NCBI GenBank assembly: GCA_036337155.1
Contig: JAYZET010000004.1
Coordinates: 8,352-72,351, forward strand
Length of the DNA: 64,000 nucleotides
Direction: 5' to 3'
Source of the DNA: Pseudomonadota bacterium
Lineage (GTDB): Bacteria; Pseudomonadota; Alphaproteobacteria; UBA8366
Shown here: positions 6,468-59,528 of the stretch, piece by piece
Numbering within the stretch: position 1 is the first letter of the stretch
Layout of the letters: every line of letters begins with the position of its first letter
Program-made: the position numbers and the translations under genes
Notes under the pieces: generated by a model
What the model saw: only the letters and a program-made list of their open reading frames with translations
What the model was told of the DNA's origin: nothing
Databases searched by the model: none

Positions 6468-7595
6468 CTAAGTGAACAATGCAAGTACGCCGGTATAACC
6501 GTAGAGCCGGTTATTGGAGATTTCACCATTTGCGAAAAAGCCCACTAGCGGAAACTCACCGAGTTCTTTGGAGATCAACTGTAATTCTTCACTATTAGTC
6601 CCAAATTGGTTTGGTCCCCGCGCACAGCACGAAAAATACAGCCCGCCTCGGATCGGTACGTTGCCGGTTCGGTGGCGGAGATCTCTCAGCATGCGCCGCA
6701 TGTCTTCGACCGCACTATTGTGATCGCGGCGACAGAACATGATGGAATCGCCTGCGGTGACGAGTTCACCAATTGCGATGAGATTTTGATTAGGATCAAT
6801 TCCAGTTAAATTGCGGACGAGATAATCTCCTGTATCCGAGCCGCTGACCGGGATTGCAGCGAAGATATAGCCGGCAACCTTACTGAGGTCGCGGGCCAGG
6901 ACTTCTCCAATGTCTTCCTTAAAAACTTCGAGAGCAGGGCGATCGTCGATTTCAATAAGGATGTTTTGTTCGGCGGCAGTGATCCGATGCATTTTGCCGA
7001 TCGGCGAGCAGCCCTGCGTCAGTGCGACGGCAACTGGAACCGCTTCGAGTGATATCATCACGCCTGAAACCTCACCCTCCGCCACGTCCCCGGCGAGTTG
7101 CGGATGGGCACCGTTCGAGGAGGTTAGACCGCCTATTAGAAAGCCGTCGGTTTCGCGTGACAAATCTTCGATAATCCGGGGAACATTCTCATTACGAGGA
7201 TCTGCATGGGTGACAACGAGCGGCGGCGTGTCCGAAAGCCAGTCAGCAATATTGGCAATCGCGGGCGCGATGTCGTCGCTGATACCGCCGAAAACGCGAA
7301 ACGCTTTTTCCGGTATCGGCGCGACCATTGCCGCCATCGCGGCTTCGCCGAAATACTCCTTTCCAGGTGCACAGATGCCGAACCCAACAGTGCCGACCCA
7401 ATTCGGCACCCCGGTCGTCTGACGCAGAAAAGCGGAAATATCCTCCAGGGAAGCCGCGAAAGCATCTGTGACATAGAGGAATCCAAGGCGGTGTTCCTCG
7501 CCAATCGGTTGCAGATTTCGAATCATCTCGTCTGCGGCTTCCTGCCAGCTGGATCCTTTCGCATGCGCTACAAGAAACTTGTCTGGATTACTCAT
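6468..7595 (-). CDS. FIST-domain (FIST_N/FIST_C) sensory protein
   Basis: Its length and sequence pattern (GFLYVTD.., VGTVGFG.., FSCCARG..) match FIST domain proteins. This is assigned by recognition only. Confidence 0.75.
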   Translation of the reverse strand: MSNPDKFLVAHAKGSSWQEAADEMIRNLQPIGEEHRLGFLYVTDAFAASLEDISAFLRQTTGVPNWVGTVGFGICAPGKEYFGEAAMAAMVAPIPEKAFRVFGGISDDIAPAIANIADWLSDTPPLVVTHADPRNENVPRIIEDLSRETDGFLIGGLTSSNGAHPQLAGDVAEGEVSGVMISLEAVPVAVALTQGCSPIGKMHRITAAEQNILIEIDDRPALEVFKEDIGEVLARDLSKVAGYIFAAIPVSGSDTGDYLVRNLTGIDPNQNLIAIGELVTAGDSIMFCRRDHNSAVEDMRRMLRDLRHRTGNVPIRGGLYFSCCARGPNQFGTNSEELQLISKELGEFPLVGFFANGEISNNRLYGYTGVLALFT

Positions 7596-8284
7596 TTAAA
7601 ATCCTTTCCTAGCGCATTTATAACGAAGGGCAATATACGTTCGGCGATAATGGCAACCCCTTTAGCATTCGGATGCAGACCATCCTGCTGGTTTAACTTT
7701 GGGTCGGCGGCAACACCTTCCAGGAAAAATGGATAGAAATCCAACCCCTGATGGTGAGCAATGGCCGGAAAGACATCGTCGAAGCGCTTCGCATAGTCGG
7801 GGCCGAGATTGCGTGGCGCCTTCATACCGGTCAATAAGATTGGCGTACCCGTGGCTTTCAATTTTTGGACGATTTGCTCGAGGTTCTGGCGTGTCAGAGC
7901 CGGGTCTATACCCCGGAGGGCGTCGTTTGCTCCGAGTTCGACGATTGCGAGGTCAAAGCGTCTGTCCATTAACCAATCTATGCGTTGTAGGGCGCCACTT
8001 GTGGTGTCTCCGGAAACGCCAGCGTTAATAATTTCCGACTTGATATCGGCATTCTGAAGTTGCCGGGTGAGCTGTGAGGGAAATGAATCCGGCTGGCGTA
8101 GTCCATAGCCAGCCGTCAAGCTGTCGCCGAGAGCGAGGATACGAATTTGATCCGAAATCGCTGCTGTGGGCGTAATGACCAGGAGGTATGCGAGAAACGG
8201 AAGGGTGATCTTTGCGTTGAAAGGTGGGCGTACCTCGCCATATGGTCGAAGAACTTTCCCGACGATCGGAAACGGTGCAAACAT
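7592..8284 (-). CDS. SGNH/GDSL arylesterase, TesA-like (acyl-CoA thioesterase I/lysophospholipase L1 family)
   Basis: Block I ILALGDSLTAGYG, block III GANDALRG, block V DGLHPN. The ATG at 8284 is the only in-frame canonical start upstream of the hydrophobic signal-like segment. It is divergent from the ybbA-like gene, as in E. coli tesA-ybbA-ybbP. Confidence 0.85.
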   Translation of the reverse strand: MFAPFPIVGKVLRPYGEVRPPFNAKITLPFLAYLLVITPTAAISDQIRILALGDSLTAGYGLRQPDSFPSQLTRQLQNADIKSEIINAGVSGDTTSGALQRIDWLMDRRFDLAIVELGANDALRGIDPALTRQNLEQIVQKLKATGTPILLTGMKAPRNLGPDYAKRFDDVFPAIAHHQGLDFYPFFLEGVAADPKLNQQDGLHPNAKGVAIIAERILPFVINALGKDFK

Positions 8285-9002
8285 GAACTTCTCTTCCTCG
8301 GCGGGCCAGATGGTCCGCCTCCAAGACGTGGAACTTACACTTAAGAGCGATGCTGGTGAGATCAACATCCTAAAAGGAATTGATCTTTCCATAGATCGGG
8401 GCGAATCTGTCGGTGTTGTCGGTCCTTCGGGTTCTGGAAAGACCTCAATGATTATGACCGTTGCCGGTCTGGAACGAATTACCGCCGGCCAGATCTGGGT
8501 GGCAGGTCGTGAAATTTCCGTTCTTGATGAGGATGAACTTGCTGTTTTCCGGCGAGATGAAATCGGTGTCGTATTCCAATCCTTTCATTTGATCCCAACC
8601 ATGAATGCCCAGGAAAATGTGGCAGTACCGATGGAATTAGCTGGCCGGCGTGACGCGTTCGAGAGAGCTGAAGTTGCACTCGAAGCCGTCGACCTCGGAC
8701 ATCGGTTAATGCACTATCCGGGTCAATTATCCGGTGGTGAACAGCAACGCGTGGCTTTGGCGCGAGCTTTTGCCGTTGAGCCGCAGTTATTGCTGGCGGA
8801 CGAACCGACTGGCAATCTTGATGTTGAGACAGGTAGCCGCATCGTTGAGATGATGTTCGAACTTGCCGCGAGTGCCGGAACTACCATGATGCTCATCACG
8901 CACGACCTTGCAGTCGCTGAGCGATGCCAGCGGATTGTAACGATGTACGACGGGCGAATAGATGCTTCGCCTGCCGAGATGCAGACAAGCGAATGCCCAT
9001 GA
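8283..9002 (+). CDS. ABC transporter ATP-binding protein (YbbA/LolD-like)
   Basis: Walker A GPSGSGKTS, signature LSGGEQQRV, Walker B LLLADEPTGNLD, H-loop ITHDL. The start is ambiguous (ATG 8283 or ATG 8310). The 8166 extension overlaps the divergent gene. Confidence 0.85.
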   Translation: MNFSSSAGQMVRLQDVELTLKSDAGEINILKGIDLSIDRGESVGVVGPSGSGKTSMIMTVAGLERITAGQIWVAGREISVLDEDELAVFRRDEIGVVFQSFHLIPTMNAQENVAVPMELAGRRDAFERAEVALEAVDLGHRLMHYPGQLSGGEQQRVALARAFAVEPQLLLADEPTGNLDVETGSRIVEMMFELAASAGTTMMLITHDLAVAERCQRIVTMYDGRIDASPAEMQTSECP

Positions 9003-11530
9003 AGGCATGGTTGGTTCCCATTCGCTTCGCGCTCCGTGAGTTGCGGTCGGGATTGTTTGGGTTTCGCTTATTGATCGCCTGTTTAGCTCTCGGTGTAGCC
9101 GCGGTTGCCGGTGTTGGCTCGCTTGCTGCGGCGTTGACGGCGGGCTTGAAGGCGGAAGGCCGAACCCTGCTTGGTGGCGATGTCGACCTCACATTTACTC
9201 ATCGTCGCGCTTCCCAAGAGCAATTTTCTTGGCTGAAAGCCGGGGGTGCAAAAATTTCATCCGTCATCGAGATGCGCACTATGGTTCGCCCATTGTTAGG
9301 GACGGCTCGACAAAGATTGGTCGAATTGAAGGCTGTTGATGGGAATTACCCTATTTACGGAAGTTTTACGCTAAGGGGCGGCGGTAATCTTGCGATGGCG
9401 CTTCAAAGGAAAGACGATGTTTGGGGTGCCGCTGTTGGGCCGCGGGTGCTCGAGCATCTTGGTATTTCCGTTGGCGATCGGTTTCGCATCGGCGACGCCG
9501 AATTTCGGGCAGCAGCAATTATCCACCGCGAACCAGACCGAGGCACACGAGCGTTTAGGCTTGGCCCGCGGATTATCATTGCAGCGCCGGCCTTGGCGGC
9601 AACGGGCTTAGAACGACCAGGAAGCCTTATCCGATATCATTACCGCCTGGCGCTTCCGCCCGGGACAGACCTTAAGGTATGGCGTGAGACTTTGCAGAAA
9701 CGCTTTCCCGGGGCTGGTTGGCGCATACGGGACGTAGAAAATGCAGCACCTGGTATCCAACGGTTCGTCGACCGCGTGGCGCTGTTCCTTTCGCTGATTG
9801 GGCTGACCGCTTTGCTGGTTGGCGGTGTCGGTGTCGCCAATTCCGTTCGATCTTTCATTGAGTCGCGGATCCGATCTATCGCGACTTTGAAGTGTCTCGG
9901 TGCGAATCGACAAACCATTTTTCGCATTTACCTGCTGCAAGTTTTTGCAATGGCCACAGTTGGCATCTCCGGCGGTCTTGCGATTGGCGCACTGGTGCCG
10001 AAGTTCGTGGCTCCATTGCTCGATGGCCAACTGCCTGTAACGGTGCGCATGGGATTTTATTTGGAACCTATGGCGATCGCCGCCGCATTCGGGTTTCTTG
10101 TCGCCGCGCTCTTTACGTTATGGCCTCTTGGGCTTGCTGGTGAGGTGCGGGCGGCTGCTTTGTTTAGGAACACCGTTGAACGCCTTTGCGGGAAACCGCC
10201 ACGGCGCTTTTACTTTGCAAGTGGAGGGCTTGCGGCGATAATTGCCTTGTTGGTTATTGCAACGGCGTCCCGTCCGGATATGGCTGGTTGGTACATCGCT
10301 GGCGCGGTTTTGGCATTCGCTATTTTCCGAGCGGTAGGAGAAGTGCTCGTTCATATCCTTCGCCGGATACCGCGTCCCCGTCGTCCTATATTGCGACTGG
10401 CACTTGCCAACCTGCACCGGCCTGGTGCGCCGACGACCGGAGCAGTGCTCTCGCTTGGTTTGGGTTTTACGGTACTCGTGGCGGTTGCGTTATTGGAGCA
10501 CAATCTTAAGCGCCAAATCGAAGAAGTCCTGCCTGAGGAAGCGCCGGGATACTACTTCATTGACATCCAGCCGCCACAAGCGGAGGCATTTGACAAACTC
10601 GTGCGGCATCATCCTGGCGTTGCTGATTTGCAACGCGTTCCGATGTTGCGTGGTCGCATTGTAGCGTTGAATAGCACACCGGTAGAAAAGATAGTGCCGC
10701 CGCCCGAATTTGCGTGGATACTGCGCGGTGATAGAGGTCTCACCTGGTCGCGCCGTTTGCCAGATGCAGGCAATCGCATTGTTTCTGGCGATTGGTGGCC
10801 AGCGGACTATGCGGGCGAGCCTTTAGTTTCTTTTGACGCCCGGGCGGCGCGCGCGTTCGGTCTTGACGTTGGTGACAGCTTGACAGTGAACATACTGGGT
10901 AAGCGGGTCACGACCAGGATCGCCAATCTCCGGGTCATCGACTGGACCAGCCTGGGAATTAACTTTGTGATGGTATTTTCGCCTGGGCTCTTAGAAGGTG
11001 CCCCGCAGAGCCAGATCGCGACTGTGCGGATCGATCCGGCGAAGGAATTGGCGCTCGAACGTGCAGTCGCGGACAGTTTCCCAAACGTAACGGCCATCCG
11101 CGTCAAAGAAGTGCTGGAAGACGTAAACAGCGTGCTGGGAAGCCTCGCTATCGCCGTTAAGGGCATCGCGGCAGTGGCAATTTTCGCTGGAATTCTGGTG
11201 CTTGGAGGATCGATTGCGGCGGACCATCGGCGGCGGGTCTATGACGCCGTTGTACTCAAGGTATTGGGTGCGACGAAACTGCGGATCATGAGGACTTTCC
11301 TTGTAGAAATCGGATTAATCGGTCTGTTCACCTCGTTTCTGGCCGCACTACTCGGCACGCTTATCGCTTGGTCTGTCGTTGAGAAGATCATGCGCATGCG
11401 ATGGGACTTCGGAGTGGAACCGCTGGTCTGGACGCTCTTTGCGGCCGTGGTCGTTACGACCGTGTTTGGTTTCGTCGGGACTTGGCGCGCCTTAAGCCTG
11501 AAGGTGGCACCATATTTGCGCAACGATTGA
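8999..11530 (+). CDS. FtsX-family ABC transporter permease (YbbP-like, two FtsX domains)
   Basis: About 843 aa with two clusters of TM helices separated by large loops. ATG at 8999 overlaps the ATPase stop (ATGA). MKAWLVPIRFALRELR is a typical N-terminus. Confidence 0.85.
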   Translation: MKAWLVPIRFALRELRSGLFGFRLLIACLALGVAAVAGVGSLAAALTAGLKAEGRTLLGGDVDLTFTHRRASQEQFSWLKAGGAKISSVIEMRTMVRPLLGTARQRLVELKAVDGNYPIYGSFTLRGGGNLAMALQRKDDVWGAAVGPRVLEHLGISVGDRFRIGDAEFRAAAIIHREPDRGTRAFRLGPRIIIAAPALAATGLERPGSLIRYHYRLALPPGTDLKVWRETLQKRFPGAGWRIRDVENAAPGIQRFVDRVALFLSLIGLTALLVGGVGVANSVRSFIESRIRSIATLKCLGANRQTIFRIYLLQVFAMATVGISGGLAIGALVPKFVAPLLDGQLPVTVRMGFYLEPMAIAAAFGFLVAALFTLWPLGLAGEVRAAALFRNTVERLCGKPPRRFYFASGGLAAIIALLVIATASRPDMAGWYIAGAVLAFAIFRAVGEVLVHILRRIPRPRRPILRLALANLHRPGAPTTGAVLSLGLGFTVLVAVALLEHNLKRQIEEVLPEEAPGYYFIDIQPPQAEAFDKLVRHHPGVADLQRVPMLRGRIVALNSTPVEKIVPPPEFAWILRGDRGLTWSRRLPDAGNRIVSGDWWPADYAGEPLVSFDARAARAFGLDVGDSLTVNILGKRVTTRIANLRVIDWTSLGINFVMVFSPGLLEGAPQSQIATVRIDPAKELALERAVADSFPNVTAIRVKEVLEDVNSVLGSLAIAVKGIAAVAIFAGILVLGGSIAADHRRRVYDAVVLKVLGATKLRIMRTFLVEIGLIGLFTSFLAALLGTLIAWSVVEKIMRMRWDFGVEPLVWTLFAAVVVTTVFGFVGTWRALSLKVAPYLRND

Positions 11531-15055: not shown

Positions 15056-15131
<76 letters not shown>

Positions 15132-52235: not shown

Positions 52236-52245
52236 AATGTTGCGT

Positions 52246-52645
<400 letters not shown>

Positions 52646-52908
52646 GCGCTATTCTTGTTTTCTGTTCGAAATAAAATTGGCGTGCCAAGACGCGCTAAAA
52701 TTGCCCATTACGACGAGAAAGGATTTAAAAACAAAAATAGAACATAAAGAAAACATTAGGGGGTTTTTTATTTTAAGAATTCATTGAAGCACTAAACCTG
52801 GTGTTTCCAAGTGAATACAGCACAATTTTTTGATTACTTGGAGAGAACATGTATTAGTGTAATTTTATCATCTCTATTATTATTTGTTTGTATTGACTTT
52901 CCATTTAA

Positions 52909-53003: not shown

Positions 53004-53459
53004 ATGGCGTTGTTCGCCGGCACATATGAGAACCGGATTGACCGTAAAGGGCGCGTCTCCTTGCCGGCAGATTTTCGTGCCGAGTTACCTACTGAAGGTA
53101 CGCGTGTTGTGTACGTTTATCCTTCTCCCCGCGGAGGCGCGCTCGAGGCGTGCGATCGGCCCTTTATGCAGCGTATGGCCGACAGCTTGGAACAATTTGA
53201 TATGTTCTCCGACGAGGAGGACGAATTGGCTTCGATCATTGTTTCCGAAGCGCGCCGCGTCTCAATCGACGGTGAAGGACGCATCGTGCTGCCACCTGAA
53301 TTGATTGAACTTGCCGGGGTCGATGAGCGAGTAACGTTCGTTGGGCGTGGTGCTCGCTTCCAAATCTGGGATCCTGCCACCTTTGCGGAGAAGGCCGCCG
53401 AGGCGCGCGAGCGTGCAAAGGGTAGGACCATGCGTCTACTCCCGCAGGAGGGGAGTTAA
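53004..53459 (+). CDS. mraZ: transcriptional regulator MraZ
   Basis: Two SpoVT/AbrB-like halves with DRKGRVSLP and DGEGRIVLP motifs. It is the first gene of the dcw cluster. Confidence 0.95.
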   Translation: MALFAGTYENRIDRKGRVSLPADFRAELPTEGTRVVYVYPSPRGGALEACDRPFMQRMADSLEQFDMFSDEEDELASIIVSEARRVSIDGEGRIVLPPELIELAGVDERVTFVGRGARFQIWDPATFAEKAAEARERAKGRTMRLLPQEGS

Positions 53460-54442
53460 TGACCCAGCACACTATCTCGGCTACCGCACATGTACCGGTG
53501 TTGCTCAGTGAGGTATTAATCGCCCTTTCGCCGCACGATGGTGGCGTCTATGTGGACGGTACCTTCGGTGCGGGAGGTTATACTCGTGCCGTATTGGACG
53601 CCGCCGATACTAAAGTCTGGGCAATCGACCGTGATCCAGATGCGATCCGCCGCGGTTATGCACTCCGCATGGAGTGGGGCGATAGATTGACCATGCTGCA
53701 GGGCCGCTTCGGTGAAATGGCTCAGCTGCTGCGGACCGCTGACGTAAATCGTATCGACGGGGTAGTGCTCGATCTCGGCGTCTCCTCCTCGCAGCTAGAC
53801 GATGCGGAGCGCGGCTTCTCGTTCCGTTTGGACGGCCCGCTCGACATGCGCATGGAAAAGGCAGGGCCGAGCGCAGCCGATGTTGTGAATTCGTTAGACG
53901 AGGAGGAACTTGCGCGGCTGCTTCGTGAATTTGGCGAGGAAAAGCGCGCCCGCCAGGTTGCTCGCTCCATTGTCAAAGCGCGCGCCCAACGCCCTATCAC
54001 GCGGACCTCTGAGCTTGCCGAAATTGTTTGCCGAGCGGTTCCGCAAGGCCGCTCGCGGATTAATCCTGCGACCCGCACGTTTATGGCTCTTCGTATTCGA
54101 GTGAACAATGAATTAGGCGAACTCGAATCCTTACTCTGCGCAGCCGAAGAGATGCTCGCGCCCGGCGGTCGGCTCGTCGTCGTCTCATTTCATTCACTGG
54201 AGGATCGCCGAGTTAAAAATTTCATGCAGGAACGGGGTGGCGCGTTACCCGCGGGTTCGCGCCATTTGCCTCCAGTCATAACGCGCCACGCACCAAGTTT
54301 TCGCTTGCTGCGTCGTGGAGCGGTCAAGCCATGCGACGCAGAGGCTAAATTGAATCCACGCGCTCGTTCAGCCCGCCTAAGAGTTGCCGAACGGACAAAA
54401 GCCGCTGCCTGGCCGAAAGACGAGGAGCACGTGGCATTATGA
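53459..54442 (+). CDS. rsmH: 16S rRNA (cytosine1402-N4)-methyltransferase RsmH
   Basis: HVPVLL, DGTFGAGGYT, DLGVSSSQLD and SFHSLEDR motifs. TAATG overlap with mraZ. Confidence 0.95.
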   Translation: MTQHTISATAHVPVLLSEVLIALSPHDGGVYVDGTFGAGGYTRAVLDAADTKVWAIDRDPDAIRRGYALRMEWGDRLTMLQGRFGEMAQLLRTADVNRIDGVVLDLGVSSSQLDDAERGFSFRLDGPLDMRMEKAGPSAADVVNSLDEEELARLLREFGEEKRARQVARSIVKARAQRPITRTSELAEIVCRAVPQGRSRINPATRTFMALRIRVNNELGELESLLCAAEEMLAPGGRLVVVSFHSLEDRRVKNFMQERGGALPAGSRHLPPVITRHAPSFRLLRRGAVKPCDAEAKLNPRARSARLRVAERTKAAAWPKDEEHVAL

Positions 54443-55007
54443 GGATAGTCTTAATCGCGGCGGGGGCTGTGCTCACTGCAGGCTCGCTAGGTGCGATGTT
54501 CTATATCACCTTCGCAGTGGAGCAACTCGAGGCGCGGCCGCACGATCTCAGCCGTGAGATCGCAGGCGAAAAGGAAACAAACCGCGTGTTGAAGCAAGAA
54601 AATGGTTACCTCAACATGCAGGAACGAGGGGGCACGTTACCTGCGGGGTCGCGCTATTTACCGCCGGTCATGACGCTTAATGTGCCGACATTTCGACTGC
54701 TACGCCATAACTTAATTCAGCCGCGTAACGTTGAGGGCGAACTTAATTTAGGCGCATATGTGGTACGACCATTTGCTACGGAACGCCCATTGGCGGTTAC
54801 CTGGCCGGTAGAGAAGGCTCAAGTGACATGATGAGGATCGTCTTCATTGCGGTTTGGGTAACGCTTGCCGCAGGTGCTCTAGGCGCGATGTTTCACATTA
54901 CCTTCGAGGTTGAGCAGCTCGAGGCCCGTCTGCACAAGCTTAATCGCGAGATAGTGCGTGAACAGGAAACGAAACACGTATTGCAGGCGGAATGGAGTTA
55001 TTTCAAC
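54224..55007 (+). repeat. diverged tandem duplication (2 x 392 bp) spanning the rsmH 3' end and the ftsL 5' end
   Basis: Unit A is 54224..54615 and unit B is 54616..55007. Both contain ATGCAGGAACG..., the stop/start ATGA junction and an MRIV... start. My manual alignment gives 23/30 identical residues at the start of the RsmH-like part and 37/59 in the FtsL-like part. Confidence 0.85.
54439..54831 (+). CDS. chimeric ORF: FtsL-like N-terminus (TM + coiled coil) fused in frame to a copy of the RsmH C-terminus
   Basis: aa 1-59 (MRIVLIAAGAVLTAGSLGAMFYITFAVEQLEAR...) parallel FtsL. aa 60-130 (MQERGGTLPAGSRYLPPVMT..FRLLR...) parallel RsmH residues MQERGGALPAGSRHLPPVIT..FRLLR. Intact 130-codon frame with ATGA overlaps at both ends. 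Confidence 0.6.
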   Translation: MRIVLIAAGAVLTAGSLGAMFYITFAVEQLEARPHDLSREIAGEKETNRVLKQENGYLNMQERGGTLPAGSRYLPPVMTLNVPTFRLLRHNLIQPRNVEGELNLGAYVVRPFATERPLAVTWPVEKAQVT

Positions 55008-55202
55008 CGACCGCAGCGCTTGCAGGCGTTGACTCGCGAGTTGTTGCCAAACCTCATACCGATCGAAACTGATCAATTTGTCACTTTCGAGCGGCTCCCG
55101 AAGCGTGGCACGGATCCAATTTCAGCCAAGGACGCGCTATTCGCCTCTCCGGCCTATTATGTTCCTCCTTCAAAGAGCTCAGGAGTAAGGAGGACCCAAT
55201 GA
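54828..55202 (+). CDS. ftsL: cell division protein FtsL (alphaproteobacterial type)
   Basis: Single N-terminal TM, a coiled-coil LEARLHKLNREIVREQETKHVLQAEW, then FNRPQRLQALTRELL typical of alpha FtsL. It sits between rsmH and ftsI. Confidence 0.8.
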   Translation: MMRIVFIAVWVTLAAGALGAMFHITFEVEQLEARLHKLNREIVREQETKHVLQAEWSYFNRPQRLQALTRELLPNLIPIETDQFVTFERLPKRGTDPISAKDALFASPAYYVPPSKSSGVRRTQ

Positions 55203-56959
55203 TTGAACGGATAAAACGCGCGCGCCGCCTTGCTCATCCGATGCCAGTCATACAGCGCGGTGCGCGGCGCCGTGCACCATGCCCGGCCGAAGAAAAAATT
55301 GGACCTGTGAGGGAAGCCATCGAAACGGGCCGCAAGCGTCTTACCATCATGGCGGCGATCTTGTTGCTAGCCTTTTCGGTTGTCGGACTGCGTCTCGTGG
55401 ATATCACTTTGATGCAGGAGGCGATGGAGCCACGGGTCGCGCGTGCGCCCAATACCGAAACACCGCAATTCACACGAGCCAACATTGTCGACCGCAATGG
55501 TGCTCTACTCGCAACAAGTTTACCCACGGCTTCTCTCTATGCAGACCCGCGCCAGGTGATTGACGCTAAGAAAGTGGCTGAGCGCCTCGCAGAAGCGCTG
55601 CCCGGTCTCGATAGCGAGAAACTGGCTGCTAGGTTAGCCTCAAAACGTGGTTTCGTTTGGATTAAGCGTCATCTGACACCGCGTCAGCAAAAGAATGTCA
55701 TTGGTCTCGGTCTACCGGGTGTCGATTTCCGGCGTGAGGAGAGGCGGGTCTATCCCCAGGTCCGGCTATTGTCACATGTTGTCGGGTACGTCGACATAGA
55801 TGAAAAGGGCATCGCTGGAATTGAACGTCATTTCGAGGACGAGCTTCGTCGGCGCACCGAACCGCTAGAGCTGTCAATCGACATGCGAATTCAACACGCA
55901 CTTTGCGGTGAATTGGCAGCGGCTCAGAATGAGTTTGATGCGGTGGGCGCAGCTGGGCTTGTTCTCGACGTACGCACCGCTGAAGTAATGGCGATGTGCT
56001 CGCTGCCGGATTTCGATCCAAACACGCCGATGGCAACTTCGCGCGTTTCACGATTTAACCGTGCCGCGCTAGGGGTTTATGAACTTGGATCCGCCTTCAA
56101 GATCTTCACCACGGCTATGGCACTTGACGGAGGCATAGCGCGCCTCGAGGATCGTTATGACGCGACCAAGCCGCTTAAGATTTCTCGATTTACGATTCGA
56201 GACTATCACGCGAAGAAGCGTTGGCTCTCGGTCGAAGAAATTTTTATGTACTCCTCAAATATTGGCTCCGCGCGGCTGGCTAGCGAGGTTGGAGGTAAGA
56301 CCCAACGTTCCTTCCTTGACAGTATAGGCCTTCTCAAGCCATCCGCGATCGAATTACCCGAAGTAGGCACGCCAATTTTGCCACATGTTTGGCGGCCGAT
56401 TAACACCATGACGATTGGATTTGGTCATGGCATCGCGGTGAGTCCACTGCAGTTGGCAGCGGGCGTTTCTGCAATGGTCAACGGTGGTGTCTATCGACAA
56501 CCTACTATGCTCAAGCGTTACAAGGCAGCACCGGGCCGGCGGGTGATTTCAGAACGAACGTCGAATACGTTGCGCAAGCTTTTGCGCTTAGTAGTCGAAG
56601 AAGGTACGGGTAGTCGAGCGGATACTTCGGGTTACCGAGTTGGCGGGAAAACGGGTACGGCCGAGAAGAGCGGAGCCGAAGGTTATATTAAGCGGGCCTT
56701 ACTCTCATCCTTCATTGGCGTGTTTCCGGTCGATGAACCTCGGTTCGTCATCTTTGCATTGCTCGACGAACCGAAAGGCACCAAGAAGACAAACGGCTAT
56801 GCGACTGGTGGCTGGGTTGCTGCGCCCATCGTCGGACGCGTTGTACGCCGTATTGGTCCCGTCGTCGGTATTCGGCCTTATCCGGAAAAGTTGCCGTCGA
56901 ATCGCCGCAATTTAGTCATGAATCGAGCCCATGGGGCAGCCACACTCGCATCCTATTGA
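55199..56959 (+). CDS. ftsI: peptidoglycan D,D-transpeptidase FtsI (PBP3)
   Basis: N-terminal TM, PBP dimerisation domain, SAFK, SSN and KTGTA motifs. Position in the dcw cluster. Confidence 0.9.
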   Translation: MIERIKRARRLAHPMPVIQRGARRRAPCPAEEKIGPVREAIETGRKRLTIMAAILLLAFSVVGLRLVDITLMQEAMEPRVARAPNTETPQFTRANIVDRNGALLATSLPTASLYADPRQVIDAKKVAERLAEALPGLDSEKLAARLASKRGFVWIKRHLTPRQQKNVIGLGLPGVDFRREERRVYPQVRLLSHVVGYVDIDEKGIAGIERHFEDELRRRTEPLELSIDMRIQHALCGELAAAQNEFDAVGAAGLVLDVRTAEVMAMCSLPDFDPNTPMATSRVSRFNRAALGVYELGSAFKIFTTAMALDGGIARLEDRYDATKPLKISRFTIRDYHAKKRWLSVEEIFMYSSNIGSARLASEVGGKTQRSFLDSIGLLKPSAIELPEVGTPILPHVWRPINTMTIGFGHGIAVSPLQLAAGVSAMVNGGVYRQPTMLKRYKAAPGRRVISERTSNTLRKLLRLVVEEGTGSRADTSGYRVGGKTGTAEKSGAEGYIKRALLSSFIGVFPVDEPRFVIFALLDEPKGTKKTNGYATGGWVAAPIVGRVVRRIGPVVGIRPYPEKLPSNRRNLVMNRAHGAATLASY

Positions 56960-56963
56960 GTAA

Positions 56964-58409
56964 TTGAATGGAGCTAAATTGACCCACGCCACGGTGTTCG
57001 ATGATGTAAAAATAACAGGACTGACTGCGGATAGCCGCAAGGTCAGGCCCGGTTTTCTTTTTGCCGCAATACCGGGGACGAAACTTGATGGACGTGATTA
57101 CATCGATGAGGCAGTTCGTGCCGGAGCGGCCGCTGTTTTGGCTCCGCCTGATGTAACACAAGATCGTGTCACGCCGGGGGTCTCTCTGATCACGGCGGAC
57201 AATCCACGACATAGTCTTGCGCGTATGGCAGCGGCATTTTATGGGAACAAGCCGGAAACGATCGTCGCTGTGACAGGAACAAACGGCAAGACGTCAGTTG
57301 CTAACTTTACACGGCAGATATGGACCGAGACGGGTCGCAAAGCAGCGAGCCTCGGGACACTCGGTCTGATTGGTCCGGGACACGGTGAGGGAAGCAATTT
57401 TACTACGCCGGATGCAGTAGCGCTTAACTGTATCCTCCACAAACTTGCTCAAGAGGGCGTGCAGGATGTGGCGCTGGAAGCTTCGAGCCATGGCCTCTGC
57501 CAGTTCCGCTTAGACGGCGTGCCAATACAGGCTGCCGCTTTCACTAATCTGACTCGGGACCATCTCGACTACCATGGTTCAATGTCAGAATACCGACGTG
57601 CCAAGATGCGCTTGTTTCGCGAACTGCTATTGCCTGGCGGTGCTATCGTGGTCAACGCGGAGACACCCGAATATCCAGCTTTGCTGGAGTTGTCGCGAGA
57701 GCAGGGGCATGAACTTTTTTCATACGGATTCGCAAAGGGTGATATTAAGTGTCGCGCGATGGAGGCGACAGAGGATGGCTGGTCACTCATCTTAAACATT
57801 CTCGGCACTGAACACTCTGTTAAATTTCCGTTGATGGGGTCATTTCAGGTGGCGAACGCTCTCGCAGCCCTTGGACTCGTGATCGCATGTGGAGGTGAAT
57901 ACGCTAAGGTAACCGCGGCTCTGGAAGTATTGAATGGGGTGCCGGGACGTATGGAGACAGCAGCACGACTGCCTTCGGGTGCGCGCATTATAGTTGATTA
58001 TGCGCATACGCCTAATGCGCTTGAAGCCGTGCTGACAGCCGTTCGCCCGCATGTAGCTAATCGGTTGATGTTAGTTTTTGGTTGTGGTGGCGACCGAGAT
58101 CGGGGGAAGAGGCCCGAAATGGGATTGATCGCAGCCCAACTCGCTGATGGTGTCGTTGTGACTGACGACAACCCTCGGCATGAGAATCCGGACGCCATAC
58201 GTAAGGAGATATCCGCCGCCTGTCCCGGTTGCGTCGAAGTCGCTGGACGATACGATGCGATCCGTGTCGCCATGTCGCAGTTGGTGGAGGGCGACATTCT
58301 GGTCGTCGCTGGCAAAGGGCATGAAACTGGCCAGATTTTGGGAAATGAGACTATTCCCTTCTCAGATGTCGAGGTAGTGCGGGACTGCGCGCGGGAAGTT
58401 GCCCGATGA
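56964..58409 (+). CDS. murE: UDP-N-acetylmuramoyl-L-alanyl-D-glutamate--2,6-diaminopimelate ligase MurE
   Basis: VTGTNGKTS P-loop, DYAHTPNALE, and a DNPR motif (VTDDNPRHENP) specifying meso-DAP. TTG start at 56964. Confidence 0.9.
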   Translation: MNGAKLTHATVFDDVKITGLTADSRKVRPGFLFAAIPGTKLDGRDYIDEAVRAGAAAVLAPPDVTQDRVTPGVSLITADNPRHSLARMAAAFYGNKPETIVAVTGTNGKTSVANFTRQIWTETGRKAASLGTLGLIGPGHGEGSNFTTPDAVALNCILHKLAQEGVQDVALEASSHGLCQFRLDGVPIQAAAFTNLTRDHLDYHGSMSEYRRAKMRLFRELLLPGGAIVVNAETPEYPALLELSREQGHELFSYGFAKGDIKCRAMEATEDGWSLILNILGTEHSVKFPLMGSFQVANALAALGLVIACGGEYAKVTAALEVLNGVPGRMETAARLPSGARIIVDYAHTPNALEAVLTAVRPHVANRLMLVFGCGGDRDRGKRPEMGLIAAQLADGVVVTDDNPRHENPDAIRKEISAACPGCVEVAGRYDAIRVAMSQLVEGDILVVAGKGHETGQILGNETIPFSDVEVVRDCAREVAR

Positions 58410-58442
58410 CTGCATCCAAAATATTTGCGGGCGGAGGCGGTC

Positions 58443-59528
58443 GTGCTTTTTAATCTGCTAGTTCCAATGGCGGACGACTACATTGTCTTTAATCTATTTC
58501 GCTATCTTACGTTTCGGACCGGTGGCGCAATCATGACTGCGCTGTTCGTCAGTTTTATTTTTGGGCCGGCAGTAATCAATTGGTTGAAGAATGCGCAAAA
58601 CGGCAATACTCCGGTGCGCGAGGATGTTCCTGAGGGACATCTGAAGAAGATTGGTACGCCGACCATGGGCGGATTCCTTATCTTGATGGCAATTTCCATC
58701 AGCACCTTGCTATGGGCCGATTTACGGAATGGATACGTCTGGATCGTGCTTTTAGTTACGATTGGTTTCGGCGCAGTAGGCTTCGCTGATGATTATCTAA
58801 AGTTGACAGGCCACAAATCGCATGGCCTGCGAGGGCGAATAAAACTGTTCTTCGAAATTCTAATTGCTGCGGTCGCCGTTTGCTGGTTCTTGGTCATCAC
58901 TCCGGATCCTCTCTCCGGTAGTCTCGCAATACCGTTCTTTAAGAATGTCTTGGTCAATCTTGGTTGGTTCTTTGTTCCTTTTGCCGTATTTGTTGTGGTG
59001 GGGGCCTCAAACGCAGTGAACCTCACAGACGGCCTTGATGGTCTTGCCATCGTTCCTGTTATGATTGCCGCCGCCTGTTTTGGTTTCATTGCTTATCTCG
59101 TTGGCAATACAGTTTATTCTGGGTATCTGCAGCTTAACTACGTACAGGGCGTAGGAGAACTCGCGGTTTTCTGCGGTGCGTTAGTGGGGGCAAGCCTAGG
59201 GTTTCTTTGGTATAACGCTCCACCTGCGATGGTCTTCATGGGCGACACTGGCTCGCTATCGGTCGGCGGTGCGCTTGGTTCAATTAGCGTCATTACGAAG
59301 CATGAAGTGGTCCTTGCGATTATCGGCGGTCTTTTCGTTCTGGAGACGGTCTCAGTCATTGTTCAGGTCATCTCGTTCAGGTTGACTGGAAAGCGTGTTT
59401 TCGCGATGGCACCGTTGCATCATCATTTCGAGAAGAAAGGCTGGGCCGAGTCAACCATCGTCATTCGCTTCTGGGTTATAGCGTCGATCCTGGCGCTAGT
59501 CGGTATGTCAACCTTAAAGCTGAGGTGA
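58443..59528 (+). CDS. mraY: phospho-N-acetylmuramoyl-pentapeptide transferase MraY
   Basis: [30 protein letters not shown] and MGDTGSL motifs. GTG at 58443 (MLFNLLVP...) has GGAGG 5 nt upstream. A TTG at 58425 is also open. Confidence 0.9.

Follow-up and report, generated by a model that had tools for sequence, protein, structure and literature searches.

The window analysed here, a stretch of 64,000 nucleotides of contig JAYZET010000004.1 (positions 8,352 to 72,351 of the forward strand; assembly GCA_036337155.1 of a Pseudomonadota bacterium), contains a dcw cluster (genes for division and for the cell wall) in which a short additional gene lies between rsmH and ftsL. The genes follow one another on the plus strand in the order mraZ, rsmH, a 130-codon open reading frame (ORF), ftsL, ftsI and murE. 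mraZ (53004-53459; PF02381) precedes rsmH (53459-54442; PF01795 and TIGR00006), which encodes an intact 16S rRNA m4C1402 methyltransferase of 327 amino acids (aa). This RsmH matches PF01795 with 327 bits over profile positions 3-308 of 309 and TIGR00006 with 304 bits, and it aligns to residues 40-347 of the Escherichia coli enzyme (3TKA). The 130-codon ORF occupies 54439-54831 and is followed by the genuine ftsL (54828-55202), whose 124-aa product scores 81.1 bits against NF049847 (FtsL_COG5462; cutoff 50), and by ftsI (PBP3; 55199-56959; PF00905 and PF03717), which overlaps the ftsL stop codon through an ATGA. Domain searches and ORF coordinates thus agree with a preliminary description of the locus, in which an intact rsmH, a 130-codon ORF and a genuine 124-codon ftsL had been read from the sequence.

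The additional ORF lies across the join of a tandem repeat. Self-alignment gave a period of 392 nt, an ungapped identity of 258/392 (65.8%) and a best global alignment with 0 gaps, in accordance with the 392-bp unit that had been proposed to be present twice across the rsmH/ftsL junction. Copy 1 (54224-54615, plus strand) consists of the genuine rsmH tail, that is, the final 72 rsmH codons plus the stop, the ATGA junction and an FtsL-derived head of the new ORF. Copy 2 (54616-55007, plus strand) consists of an RsmH-derived tail of the new ORF, a TGATGA junction and the genuine ftsL head. The edges of the repeat are sharp, with identity dropping to about 20-40% outside both boundaries, and even its least similar segment, the distal part of the tail, is 54.8% identical between copies (shuffle p < 1e-4). 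The breakpoint reads AAC/ATG with a microhomology of at most 1 nt, and the longest tract that is still identical between the copies measures 11 nt.

At this breakpoint the ftsL frame (54439-54615) runs without a stop into the rsmH frame (54616-54831), the distance between their first positions (54616-54439) being divisible by 3. The locus has the anatomy of a junction chimera: head-to-tail copies with sharp edges, full-length rsmH and ftsL on either side, and the 5' part of the downstream gene joined in frame to the 3' part of the upstream gene. The chimera can be divided into a head (codons 1-59; 54439-54615), FtsL-derived and identical to the FtsL head at 37/59 residues; a proximal tail (codons 60-89; 54616-54705; MQERGGTLPAGSRYLPPVMTLNVPTFRLLR), RsmH-derived and identical to RsmH at 23/30; and a distal tail (codons 90-130; 54706-54828), also RsmH-derived, with 12/41 identical residues and no indels. 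The identities of the head and of the start of the tail, as well as the weaker similarity afterwards, are those that had been noted before, as is the combination of substantial nucleotide divergence with a chimeric frame that no stop interrupts.

The comparison of the two copies by codon position indicates where the chimera has been constrained. The head has an identity of 0.80 at positions 1 and 2, the proximal tail one of 0.88 and the distal tail one of 0.56, while the values at position 3 are 0.47, 0.47 and 0.51, respectively. Positions 1 and 2 thus differ from position 3 in the head (Fisher p = 1.2e-5) and in the proximal tail (p = 5.5e-5) but not in the distal tail (p = 0.70), where the identities at the three positions are 0.51/0.61/0.51. 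Compared with the distal tail at positions 1 and 2, both the head (p = 2.7e-4) and the proximal tail (p = 3.6e-5) are better conserved, with no difference at position 3. Conservation of positions 1 and 2 against a uniform position 3 is the pattern expected from constraint on the protein, and not that of gene conversion or of an RNA or DNA element. Gene conversion was also considered for the first 56 nt of the tail, which are well conserved, and was rejected, as third-position identity there is 0.47 as elsewhere and the longest identical tract is the one of 11 nt.

Codon models led to the same result. Under a GY94-type branch model (F3x4; tree ((chimera, parent), (L008, L009)), in which L008 and L009 are the two nearest relatives introduced below), the ratio of nonsynonymous to synonymous rates (omega) on the chimera branch was 0.18 for the head (likelihood-ratio test against omega = 1, p = 1.5e-4), 0.15 for the proximal tail (p = 0.024) and 0.18 for codons 1-89 combined (p = 6.6e-5). 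The parental genes have a background omega of 0.10, from which the combined value does not differ significantly (p = 0.15). Of 20,000 neutral simulation runs, none attained the residue identity seen in the head or in the proximal tail, and 0.7-2% kept a 130-codon frame free of stops. Relative-rate counts at positions 1 and 2 were 20:2 (chimera lineage to parent lineage) in the head, 6:1 in the proximal tail and about 22:3 in the distal tail, while third-position changes were roughly symmetric in the tail and mildly skewed to the chimera lineage in the head (17:7, 14:8, 19:6). Three-taxon branch estimates for the head, derived by hand from pairwise nonsynonymous distances (dN), were 0.207 for the chimera and 0.022 for FtsL. 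The head therefore evolves several-fold faster than FtsL, yet far below the neutral rate. In the proximal tail, a single site varies across the 11 available assemblies.

The distal tail behaves differently. Its Nei-Gojobori (NG86) omega is 0.71, its variable sites within the population are 13 nonsynonymous (N) to 7 synonymous (S), and its GC content at third positions is 0.44 against 0.51-0.66 in neighbouring segments, an AT-ward drift. Maximum-likelihood codon analysis of this segment was saturated (t = 33), and codon-position identities, NG86 and population counts were used instead. Codons 1-89 have evolved under protein-level purifying selection and codons 90-130 about neutrally, so that the earlier suggestion of a chimera under selection holds for the first 89 codons (omega 0.18, p = 6.6e-5) and fails for the last 41, which are effectively neutral (omega about 0.7). 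As the distal tail provides an internal neutral control, the selection signal is unusually clean. That the distal tail is nevertheless held in frame by selection is hinted at by its complete lack of indels and by nothing else.

The structure recurs in independent sequence data. The chimeric protein is deposited at NCBI as MEE2687945.1, a "hypothetical protein" of a Pseudomonadota metagenome-assembled genome (MAG), and forms one protein cluster with one sister cluster at 95% identity. Ten further independent contigs, recovered from data of TARA, other ENA sources, Logan and NCBI (L001-L007, L088-L090), carry it at 95-100% DNA identity, without gaps and with the same order of rsmH, 130-codon ORF and ftsL. 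The resulting set of 11 sequences, the window included, is entirely metagenomic and comes from different samples and assemblers; the 130-codon frame is intact in 11/11. With copies that are 34% diverged and the same structure in 10 further assemblies, a mis-assembly, against which the preliminary description had advised a check, is excluded, and the broken frames that would have spoken for neutral decay were found in none of the carriers.

Outside this set the duplication was not encountered. A scan with RsmH against one genome per GTDB species gave 80 loci, to which two loci harbouring close FtsL homologs (L091 and L092) were added; none of these 82 related loci has two heads or two tails. 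The nearest relatives by RsmH, a TARA alphaproteobacterial MAG (L008) and Rhodospirillaceae SP8 (L009), share about 75% identity in RsmH and 73-79% in FtsI with the window, and both have a single ftsL between rsmH and ftsI. Among 5.8 billion proteins, FtsL homologs fall from 98% identity (same population) to at most 71% with no intermediates, and the two closest that were checked, L091 and L092, are single-copy. The genuine FtsL of the window shares 65-71% identity with its counterparts in related MAGs, and the invariant motif AEWSY.NRPQRL is preserved in it. An exhaustive phmmer (HMMER) search of 1.84 billion protein representatives returned ordinary FtsL proteins and one repeat-driven chance match, and no second full-length chimera. 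That match, to residues 94-124 of the chimera (FATERPLAVTWPVE) with E = 2.6e-7, was to P0009, a repetitive metagenomic protein of 333 aa (...SIFATERxLSITWELI...), and looks like a chance similarity inflated by repeats rather than homology. Two scans of JGI metagenomes, one with a profile of the chimera and one with a degenerate DNA pattern specific to the junction, found no carriers, and in the literature no duplication, paralog or chimera of ftsL in a dcw cluster was found. The earlier remark that no such duplication had been described is therefore sustained across the 82 related loci, the 1.84e9 protein representatives and the literature. The duplication is confined to one species-level lineage of uncultured marine alphaproteobacteria.

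Phylogenetic comparison places the duplication within this lineage. Placing the chimera together with the ftsL and rsmH of the window itself was better than both alternative topologies, by a log-likelihood difference (delta lnL) of 9-11 for the whole unit, 6-8 for the head and 3-3.5 for the tail, and the duplication accordingly arose after the split from the relatives L008, L009 and L092. A duplication before that split followed by loss in L008 and L009 was rejected, both alternative topologies being worse by a delta lnL of 9-11. The low identity of the copies at third codon positions (0.47-0.51) shows at the same time that the duplication is old. The term "ancient" used for it previously is thus appropriate with regard to third-position divergence, but the event is younger than the split from the nearest relatives and is limited to one species-level lineage. 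Given the substrate requirements of RecA, a longest shared tract of 11 nt implies that homologous recombination should now be unable to delete the repeat.

Within the carrier population the haplotypes are mosaic. L088 and L089 have in common a tract at 54710-54980, covering the distal tail and the ftsL head, that is 9-13% divergent while its flanks differ by 1-3%, and L089 combines a head haplotype of the L001 type (A42V, T47M, Q53K and N55K; 54561-54603) with a tail of the L088 type. These patterns indicate strain recombination within the carrier population.

The predicted product resembles FtsL in its N-terminal part. A stretch of transmembrane (TM) quality spans residues of about 3-25, with a Kyte-Doolittle maximum (19-residue window) of 2.09 at residues 3-21, compared with 2.28 in FtsL. 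An AlphaFold2 (AF2) model of low confidence (pLDDT 52) has helices at 2-31 and 34-58, separated by a break at Pro34, and a disordered tail. Hydropathy and this model together give the chimera the single N-terminal TM helix followed by a periplasmic helix that characterises FtsL. Against NF049847, however, aa 7-63 reach 31.0 bits and so miss the cutoff of 50; Pfam returned no match for either the chimera or the genuine FtsL. In 22 FtsL sequences of the clade, 34 positions of the head are conserved at 90% or more; the chimera keeps 19 of these and has replaced 15 (W9G, A13T, A16S, H22Y, E26A, L34P, N38S, V42A, R43G, Q45K, H49R, Q52K, A53Q, W55N and S56G). Where FtsL has AEWSY.NRPQRL the chimera reads KQENGYLN followed by MQERGG, the residues after 59 being RsmH-derived; the breakpoint removes the invariant NRPQRL motif together with the entire C-terminal half of FtsL. 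By these features the chimera has ceased to be a bona fide FtsL. The replacement of 15/34 FtsL-invariant residues argues against a simple truncated FtsL that competes with the original and fits either neofunctionalisation or escape from interference.

An activation-control segment (AWI/CCD) of FtsL has been described in E. coli (PMC8998562, PMC7733951). Judging from the resemblance to the motif EW...RVERIA of E. coli FtsL, the breakpoint would lie in or next to the region equivalent to this segment. A profile search of the PDB for solved FtsL structures yielded only spurious coiled-coil and epimerase matches.

In residues 60-130 the chimera is homologous to the final 71 residues of RsmH (approximately 288-347 of 3TKA, where they make up about the last 60 residues of the methyltransferase fold). 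This part lacks the S-adenosylmethionine-binding and catalytic core, the NPRARSA and LRVAERT motifs are degenerated, and the chimera has no PF01795 match at E <= 0.1. The fragment would thus be unable to fold or to methylate alone, and in the chimera it would be periplasmic. MAFFT and BLASTP align R63, L67, L74-P75, T84-F85 and L88 in this tail with residues that are invariant in FtsL (chimera 60-95 versus FtsL 60-91). Mimicry of FtsL by the tail was considered in this context and is unsupported, with shuffle p values of 0.32-0.38 when the chimera tail is tested and of 0.09-0.19 when the tail of native RsmH is.

Both ends of the chimeric frame overlap the neighbouring genes by an ATGA (54439-54442 and 54828-54831), as the preliminary description had stated. 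The rsmH/chimera junction is the plain ATGA on the plus strand, and the chimera/ftsL junction reads ATGATGA (54828-54834, plus strand). In the latter, the chimera stop TGA (54829-54831) precedes an ancestral rsmH-type stop TGA (54832-54834), and two in-frame ftsL starts are available, the new ATG at 54828 and the ATG at 54831 that is homologous to the ancestral ftsL start. A single T to G change (TTA to TGA, 54829-54831) placed the chimera stop one codon ahead of the ancestral TGA, which is still there, and thereby also created the additional ATG at 54828, which gives ftsL an MM... N-terminus and cuts the spacing between its Shine-Dalgarno (SD) sequence and start from 12 to 9 nt. An NTGA overlap of rsmH and ftsL is also kept in L008, L009, L091 and L092, so that ftsL would have been coupled to rsmH ancestrally; the duplication copied this junction.

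The SD-like GAGGAG before the chimera start (54421-54426, plus strand), inside the 3' end of rsmH, is the inherited ancestral ftsL signal. The chimera retains the better copy, with a predicted anti-SD pairing of -8.1 kcal/mol against -5.1 for the genuine ftsL of the window and -6.5 to -7.4 for ftsL in the relatives (background mean -3.5, 5th percentile -9.3). The other reading frames of the distal tail meet stops well upstream of the ftsL start, and promoter and terminator scans within the repeat gave counts at chance level and nothing above. It is well established that overlapping genes can be translationally coupled and that premature termination can have polar effects. From the SD strengths, the NTGA overlap, the stops in the other distal frames and this knowledge of coupling and polarity, we infer that the chimera is translated from the inherited ftsL SD and start, and that an open frame up to the ftsL start would be needed for normal expression of ftsL and the downstream dcw genes.

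Synonymous divergence between the window and L008 in the ftsL 5' region (54831-55007; pS 0.555) lies below that of the adjoining rsmH tail (0.78-0.82). This low value and the skewed third positions of the head may reflect synonymous constraint on the 5' end of the genuine ftsL from translation initiation or coupling.

Taken together, we consider it reasonably probable that an old, lineage-specific duplication gave rise to a translated bitopic protein with about 89 selected codons, a distal spacer and a putative action at the divisome. The event was a 392-bp tandem duplication of the final 72 rsmH codons, the overlapping stop/start and the first 59 ftsL codons, and it took place on the lineage leading to a single marine alphaproteobacterial species once its nearest sampled relatives had split off. 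A breakpoint that happened to be in frame left a new 130-codon ORF, FtsL-derived at its N-terminus and RsmH-derived at its C-terminus, between intact parents and joined to them by the ancestral NTGA overlaps. Translated from the inherited ftsL SD and start, it would yield a small inner-membrane protein of N-in bitopic topology, made up of a TM helix, a periplasmic helix with a kink and a segment rich in Pro and Gly. The neutral distal tail would serve chiefly to bring ribosomes to the ftsL start that it overlaps and that has an SD weaker than before. If the chimera has a positive function, its origin, its topology in the membrane and its co-expression make the divisome the most plausible site. 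The conserved N-terminal residues, about 90 in number, could act there, for example by TM or juxtamembrane pairing with FtsB, FtsL or FtsQ, which is the most speculative step. Lacking the FtsL activation motif and the FtsQ- and FtsB-binding C-terminus, the chimera would be a modulator and not a second FtsL. A more specific version, in which it is a newly evolved, species-specific divisome component that binds FtsB, FtsQ, FtsL or FtsWI through its TM/juxtamembrane helix and its RsmH-derived Pro/Gly-rich segment and tunes the timing of septal peptidoglycan synthesis, with the RsmH fragment recruited to a new role in the periplasm, is a tentative and rather unlikely proposal. On this view its co-translation with FtsL, in stoichiometric amounts, would make it a natural "anti-FtsL" or add it to the FtsQLB module as a third member.

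Several observations weigh against this interpretation. The support for expression consists of sequence signals (the -8.1 kcal/mol SD, the ATG start codon and the ATGA overlap with rsmH), and the AF2 model is of low confidence (pLDDT 52) with a tail predicted to be disordered. The replacement of 15/34 conserved positions, including L34P in the coiled-coil core, W9G, W55N and S56G, weakens the case that the chimera would continue to bind FtsL partners. The carriers form one species-level lineage, so that comparative power is limited, and the population counts for the head and proximal tail (6 N : 4 S), which bear on recent constraint, are too few to separate an omega of 0.2 from 1. In simulations the distal tail is expected to be free of stops 20-27% of the time under neutrality, and the idea of a spacer kept in frame therefore rests on zero indels and on what is known of coupling and polarity.

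The main rival to a positive function is an operon-trapped by-product, an explanation that we regard as unlikely but serious. The chimera would then have no function of its own and would stay translatable because an early stop or a frameshift in it would uncouple the translation of the essential ftsL and ftsI and the genes downstream, or be polar on them, its approximately 90 residues being constrained to be harmless, in that the peptide must insert cleanly in the membrane without poisoning FtsB, FtsQ or Sec. The NTGA overlap in L008, L009, L091 and L092 and the weakened SD of the carriers' ftsL are in line with such entrapment, as are a distal tail that is open yet neutral and a repeat whose 11-nt tract no longer permits deletion by homologous recombination. 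The replacement of many FtsL-invariant, likely partner-binding residues is also what selection against interference would be expected to bring about. However, an omega of about 0.18, indistinguishable from the parental 0.10 (p = 0.15), is stronger constraint than usual for the avoidance of harm. Moreover, the most conserved part of the protein (23/30; 1 variable site in 11 assemblies) is made up of the 30 RsmH-derived residues, which are predicted to be periplasmic, are Pro/Gly-rich and out of their native fold, and would have no obvious toxicity if changed.

That the ORF is a neutrally decaying, pseudogene-like relic whose frame is open by chance would agree with the neutrality of the distal 41 codons and their 20-27% likelihood of being stop-free, and with population N:S counts in the head that are not significantly below the neutral expectation. 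It is made very improbable by the codon-position signature in the head and proximal tail (p about 1e-5 each), the likelihood-ratio test (p = 6.6e-5), the rarity of 130 codons without a stop (0.7-2%) and a residue identity that neutral simulation never matched, as well as by 0 indels in 392 nt despite about 34% divergence and intact frames in 11/11 assemblies. An assembly or binning artefact, or a similarity of the copies due to recent gene conversion, gains what standing it has from the purely metagenomic nature of the data and can practically be set aside: reads of a single locus, whether collapsed or expanded, could not give copies that are 34% diverged, the structure is the same in 11 sequences although samples and assemblers differ, and recent conversion would not leave a uniform third-position identity of 0.47-0.51 with a longest identical tract of 11 nt.

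With respect to known systems, the favoured protein can be compared to alphaproteobacterial FtsL (NF049847), with which it shares the N-in TM helix, the start of the periplasmic helix, the position after rsmH and the NTGA-coupled start. It differs in that its FtsL-derived part stops short of NRPQRL, in scoring 31 bits against a cutoff of 50, in a proline in the coiled-coil core and in that a genuine FtsL is encoded directly downstream of it. To RsmH/MraW (PF01795; 3TKA) it is related by the last 71 residues only, and this fragment is no methyltransferase.

Join-point fusions of tandem duplications belong to classical bacterial genetics, and bacterial tandem duplications are normally transient, being lost by recombination. 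The present one is unlike them, as it is 392 bp long, lies in an essential operon, is present in every sampled assembly, is 34% diverged and has produced a chimera that shows long-term purifying selection. Tandem duplications that span gene boundaries have been found to make chimeric genes at population scale in Drosophila (PMC4069613, PMC5460883). Junction chimeras elsewhere share the mechanism seen here, in that the parents are left intact and the downstream gene contributes the 5' part of the fusion, the upstream gene its 3' part. Chimeras formed where the copies of a tandem duplication meet are thus of a known kind, while no report was found of a dcw cluster in which ftsL is duplicated or chimeric.

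Dominant-negative AWI mutants of FtsL and the FtsL-like toxin toxFtsLD9 interfere with the divisome (PMC7733951, PMC8998562, PMC10440598). They resemble the chimera in the concept of an FtsL-like helix without the activating surface that joins or perturbs the divisome, but they are laboratory point mutants or a toxin-antitoxin toxin with a GAF domain, whereas the chimera is known from sequence. Given its divergence at FtsL-conserved sites, the chimera, unlike dominant-negative FtsL, may no longer engage the same partners. FtsB/DivIC, which has been called an "FtsL paralog" (bioRxiv 10.1101/2022.02.09.479790), offers a precedent for a duplicated small bitopic coiled-coil divisome protein that became a new component; it is ancient, near-universal and full-length, while the chimera is limited to one species, is truncated and has foreign sequence fused to it.

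Among bacterial gene arrays the dcw cluster is one of the most conserved, and FtsL is a tightly regulated, unstable and essential subunit of the divisome. Even here, a small duplication across a gene junction was able to become established, to turn irreversible and to yield a selected gene. The locus represents a rare documented birth of a gene for a predicted small membrane protein within an essential, highly conserved operon and a compact natural case of exon-shuffling-like chimeric gene birth in a bacterium. Should the chimera act at the divisome, it would represent a modulator that evolved in nature from FtsL, and it could shed light on the use of the TM/coiled-coil region of FtsL during FtsQLB assembly and on the ways in which peptides might disturb this. 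If it is instead an operon-trapped peptide, it would illustrate that translational coupling can force the long-term retention of a by-product ORF.

Further features were noted in and around the cluster. A class A RNase P RNA (RF00010, 308 bits) lies directly upstream of mraZ at 52245-52650 on the plus strand; the overlapping "ORFs" on both strands of this interval are spurious, and the minus-strand gene of 72-151 aa called in it on related contigs is probably a miscall. In the interval 56964-59528 (6484-9033 in the carrier contig L004), murE is followed directly by mraY, after which come murD, ftsW, murG, murC and murB. No murF separates murE from mraY, a departure from the usual dcw order. 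A single tRNA gene (15059-15131, minus strand; RF00005, 73.7 bits) is also present in the window and is unrelated to the chimera.

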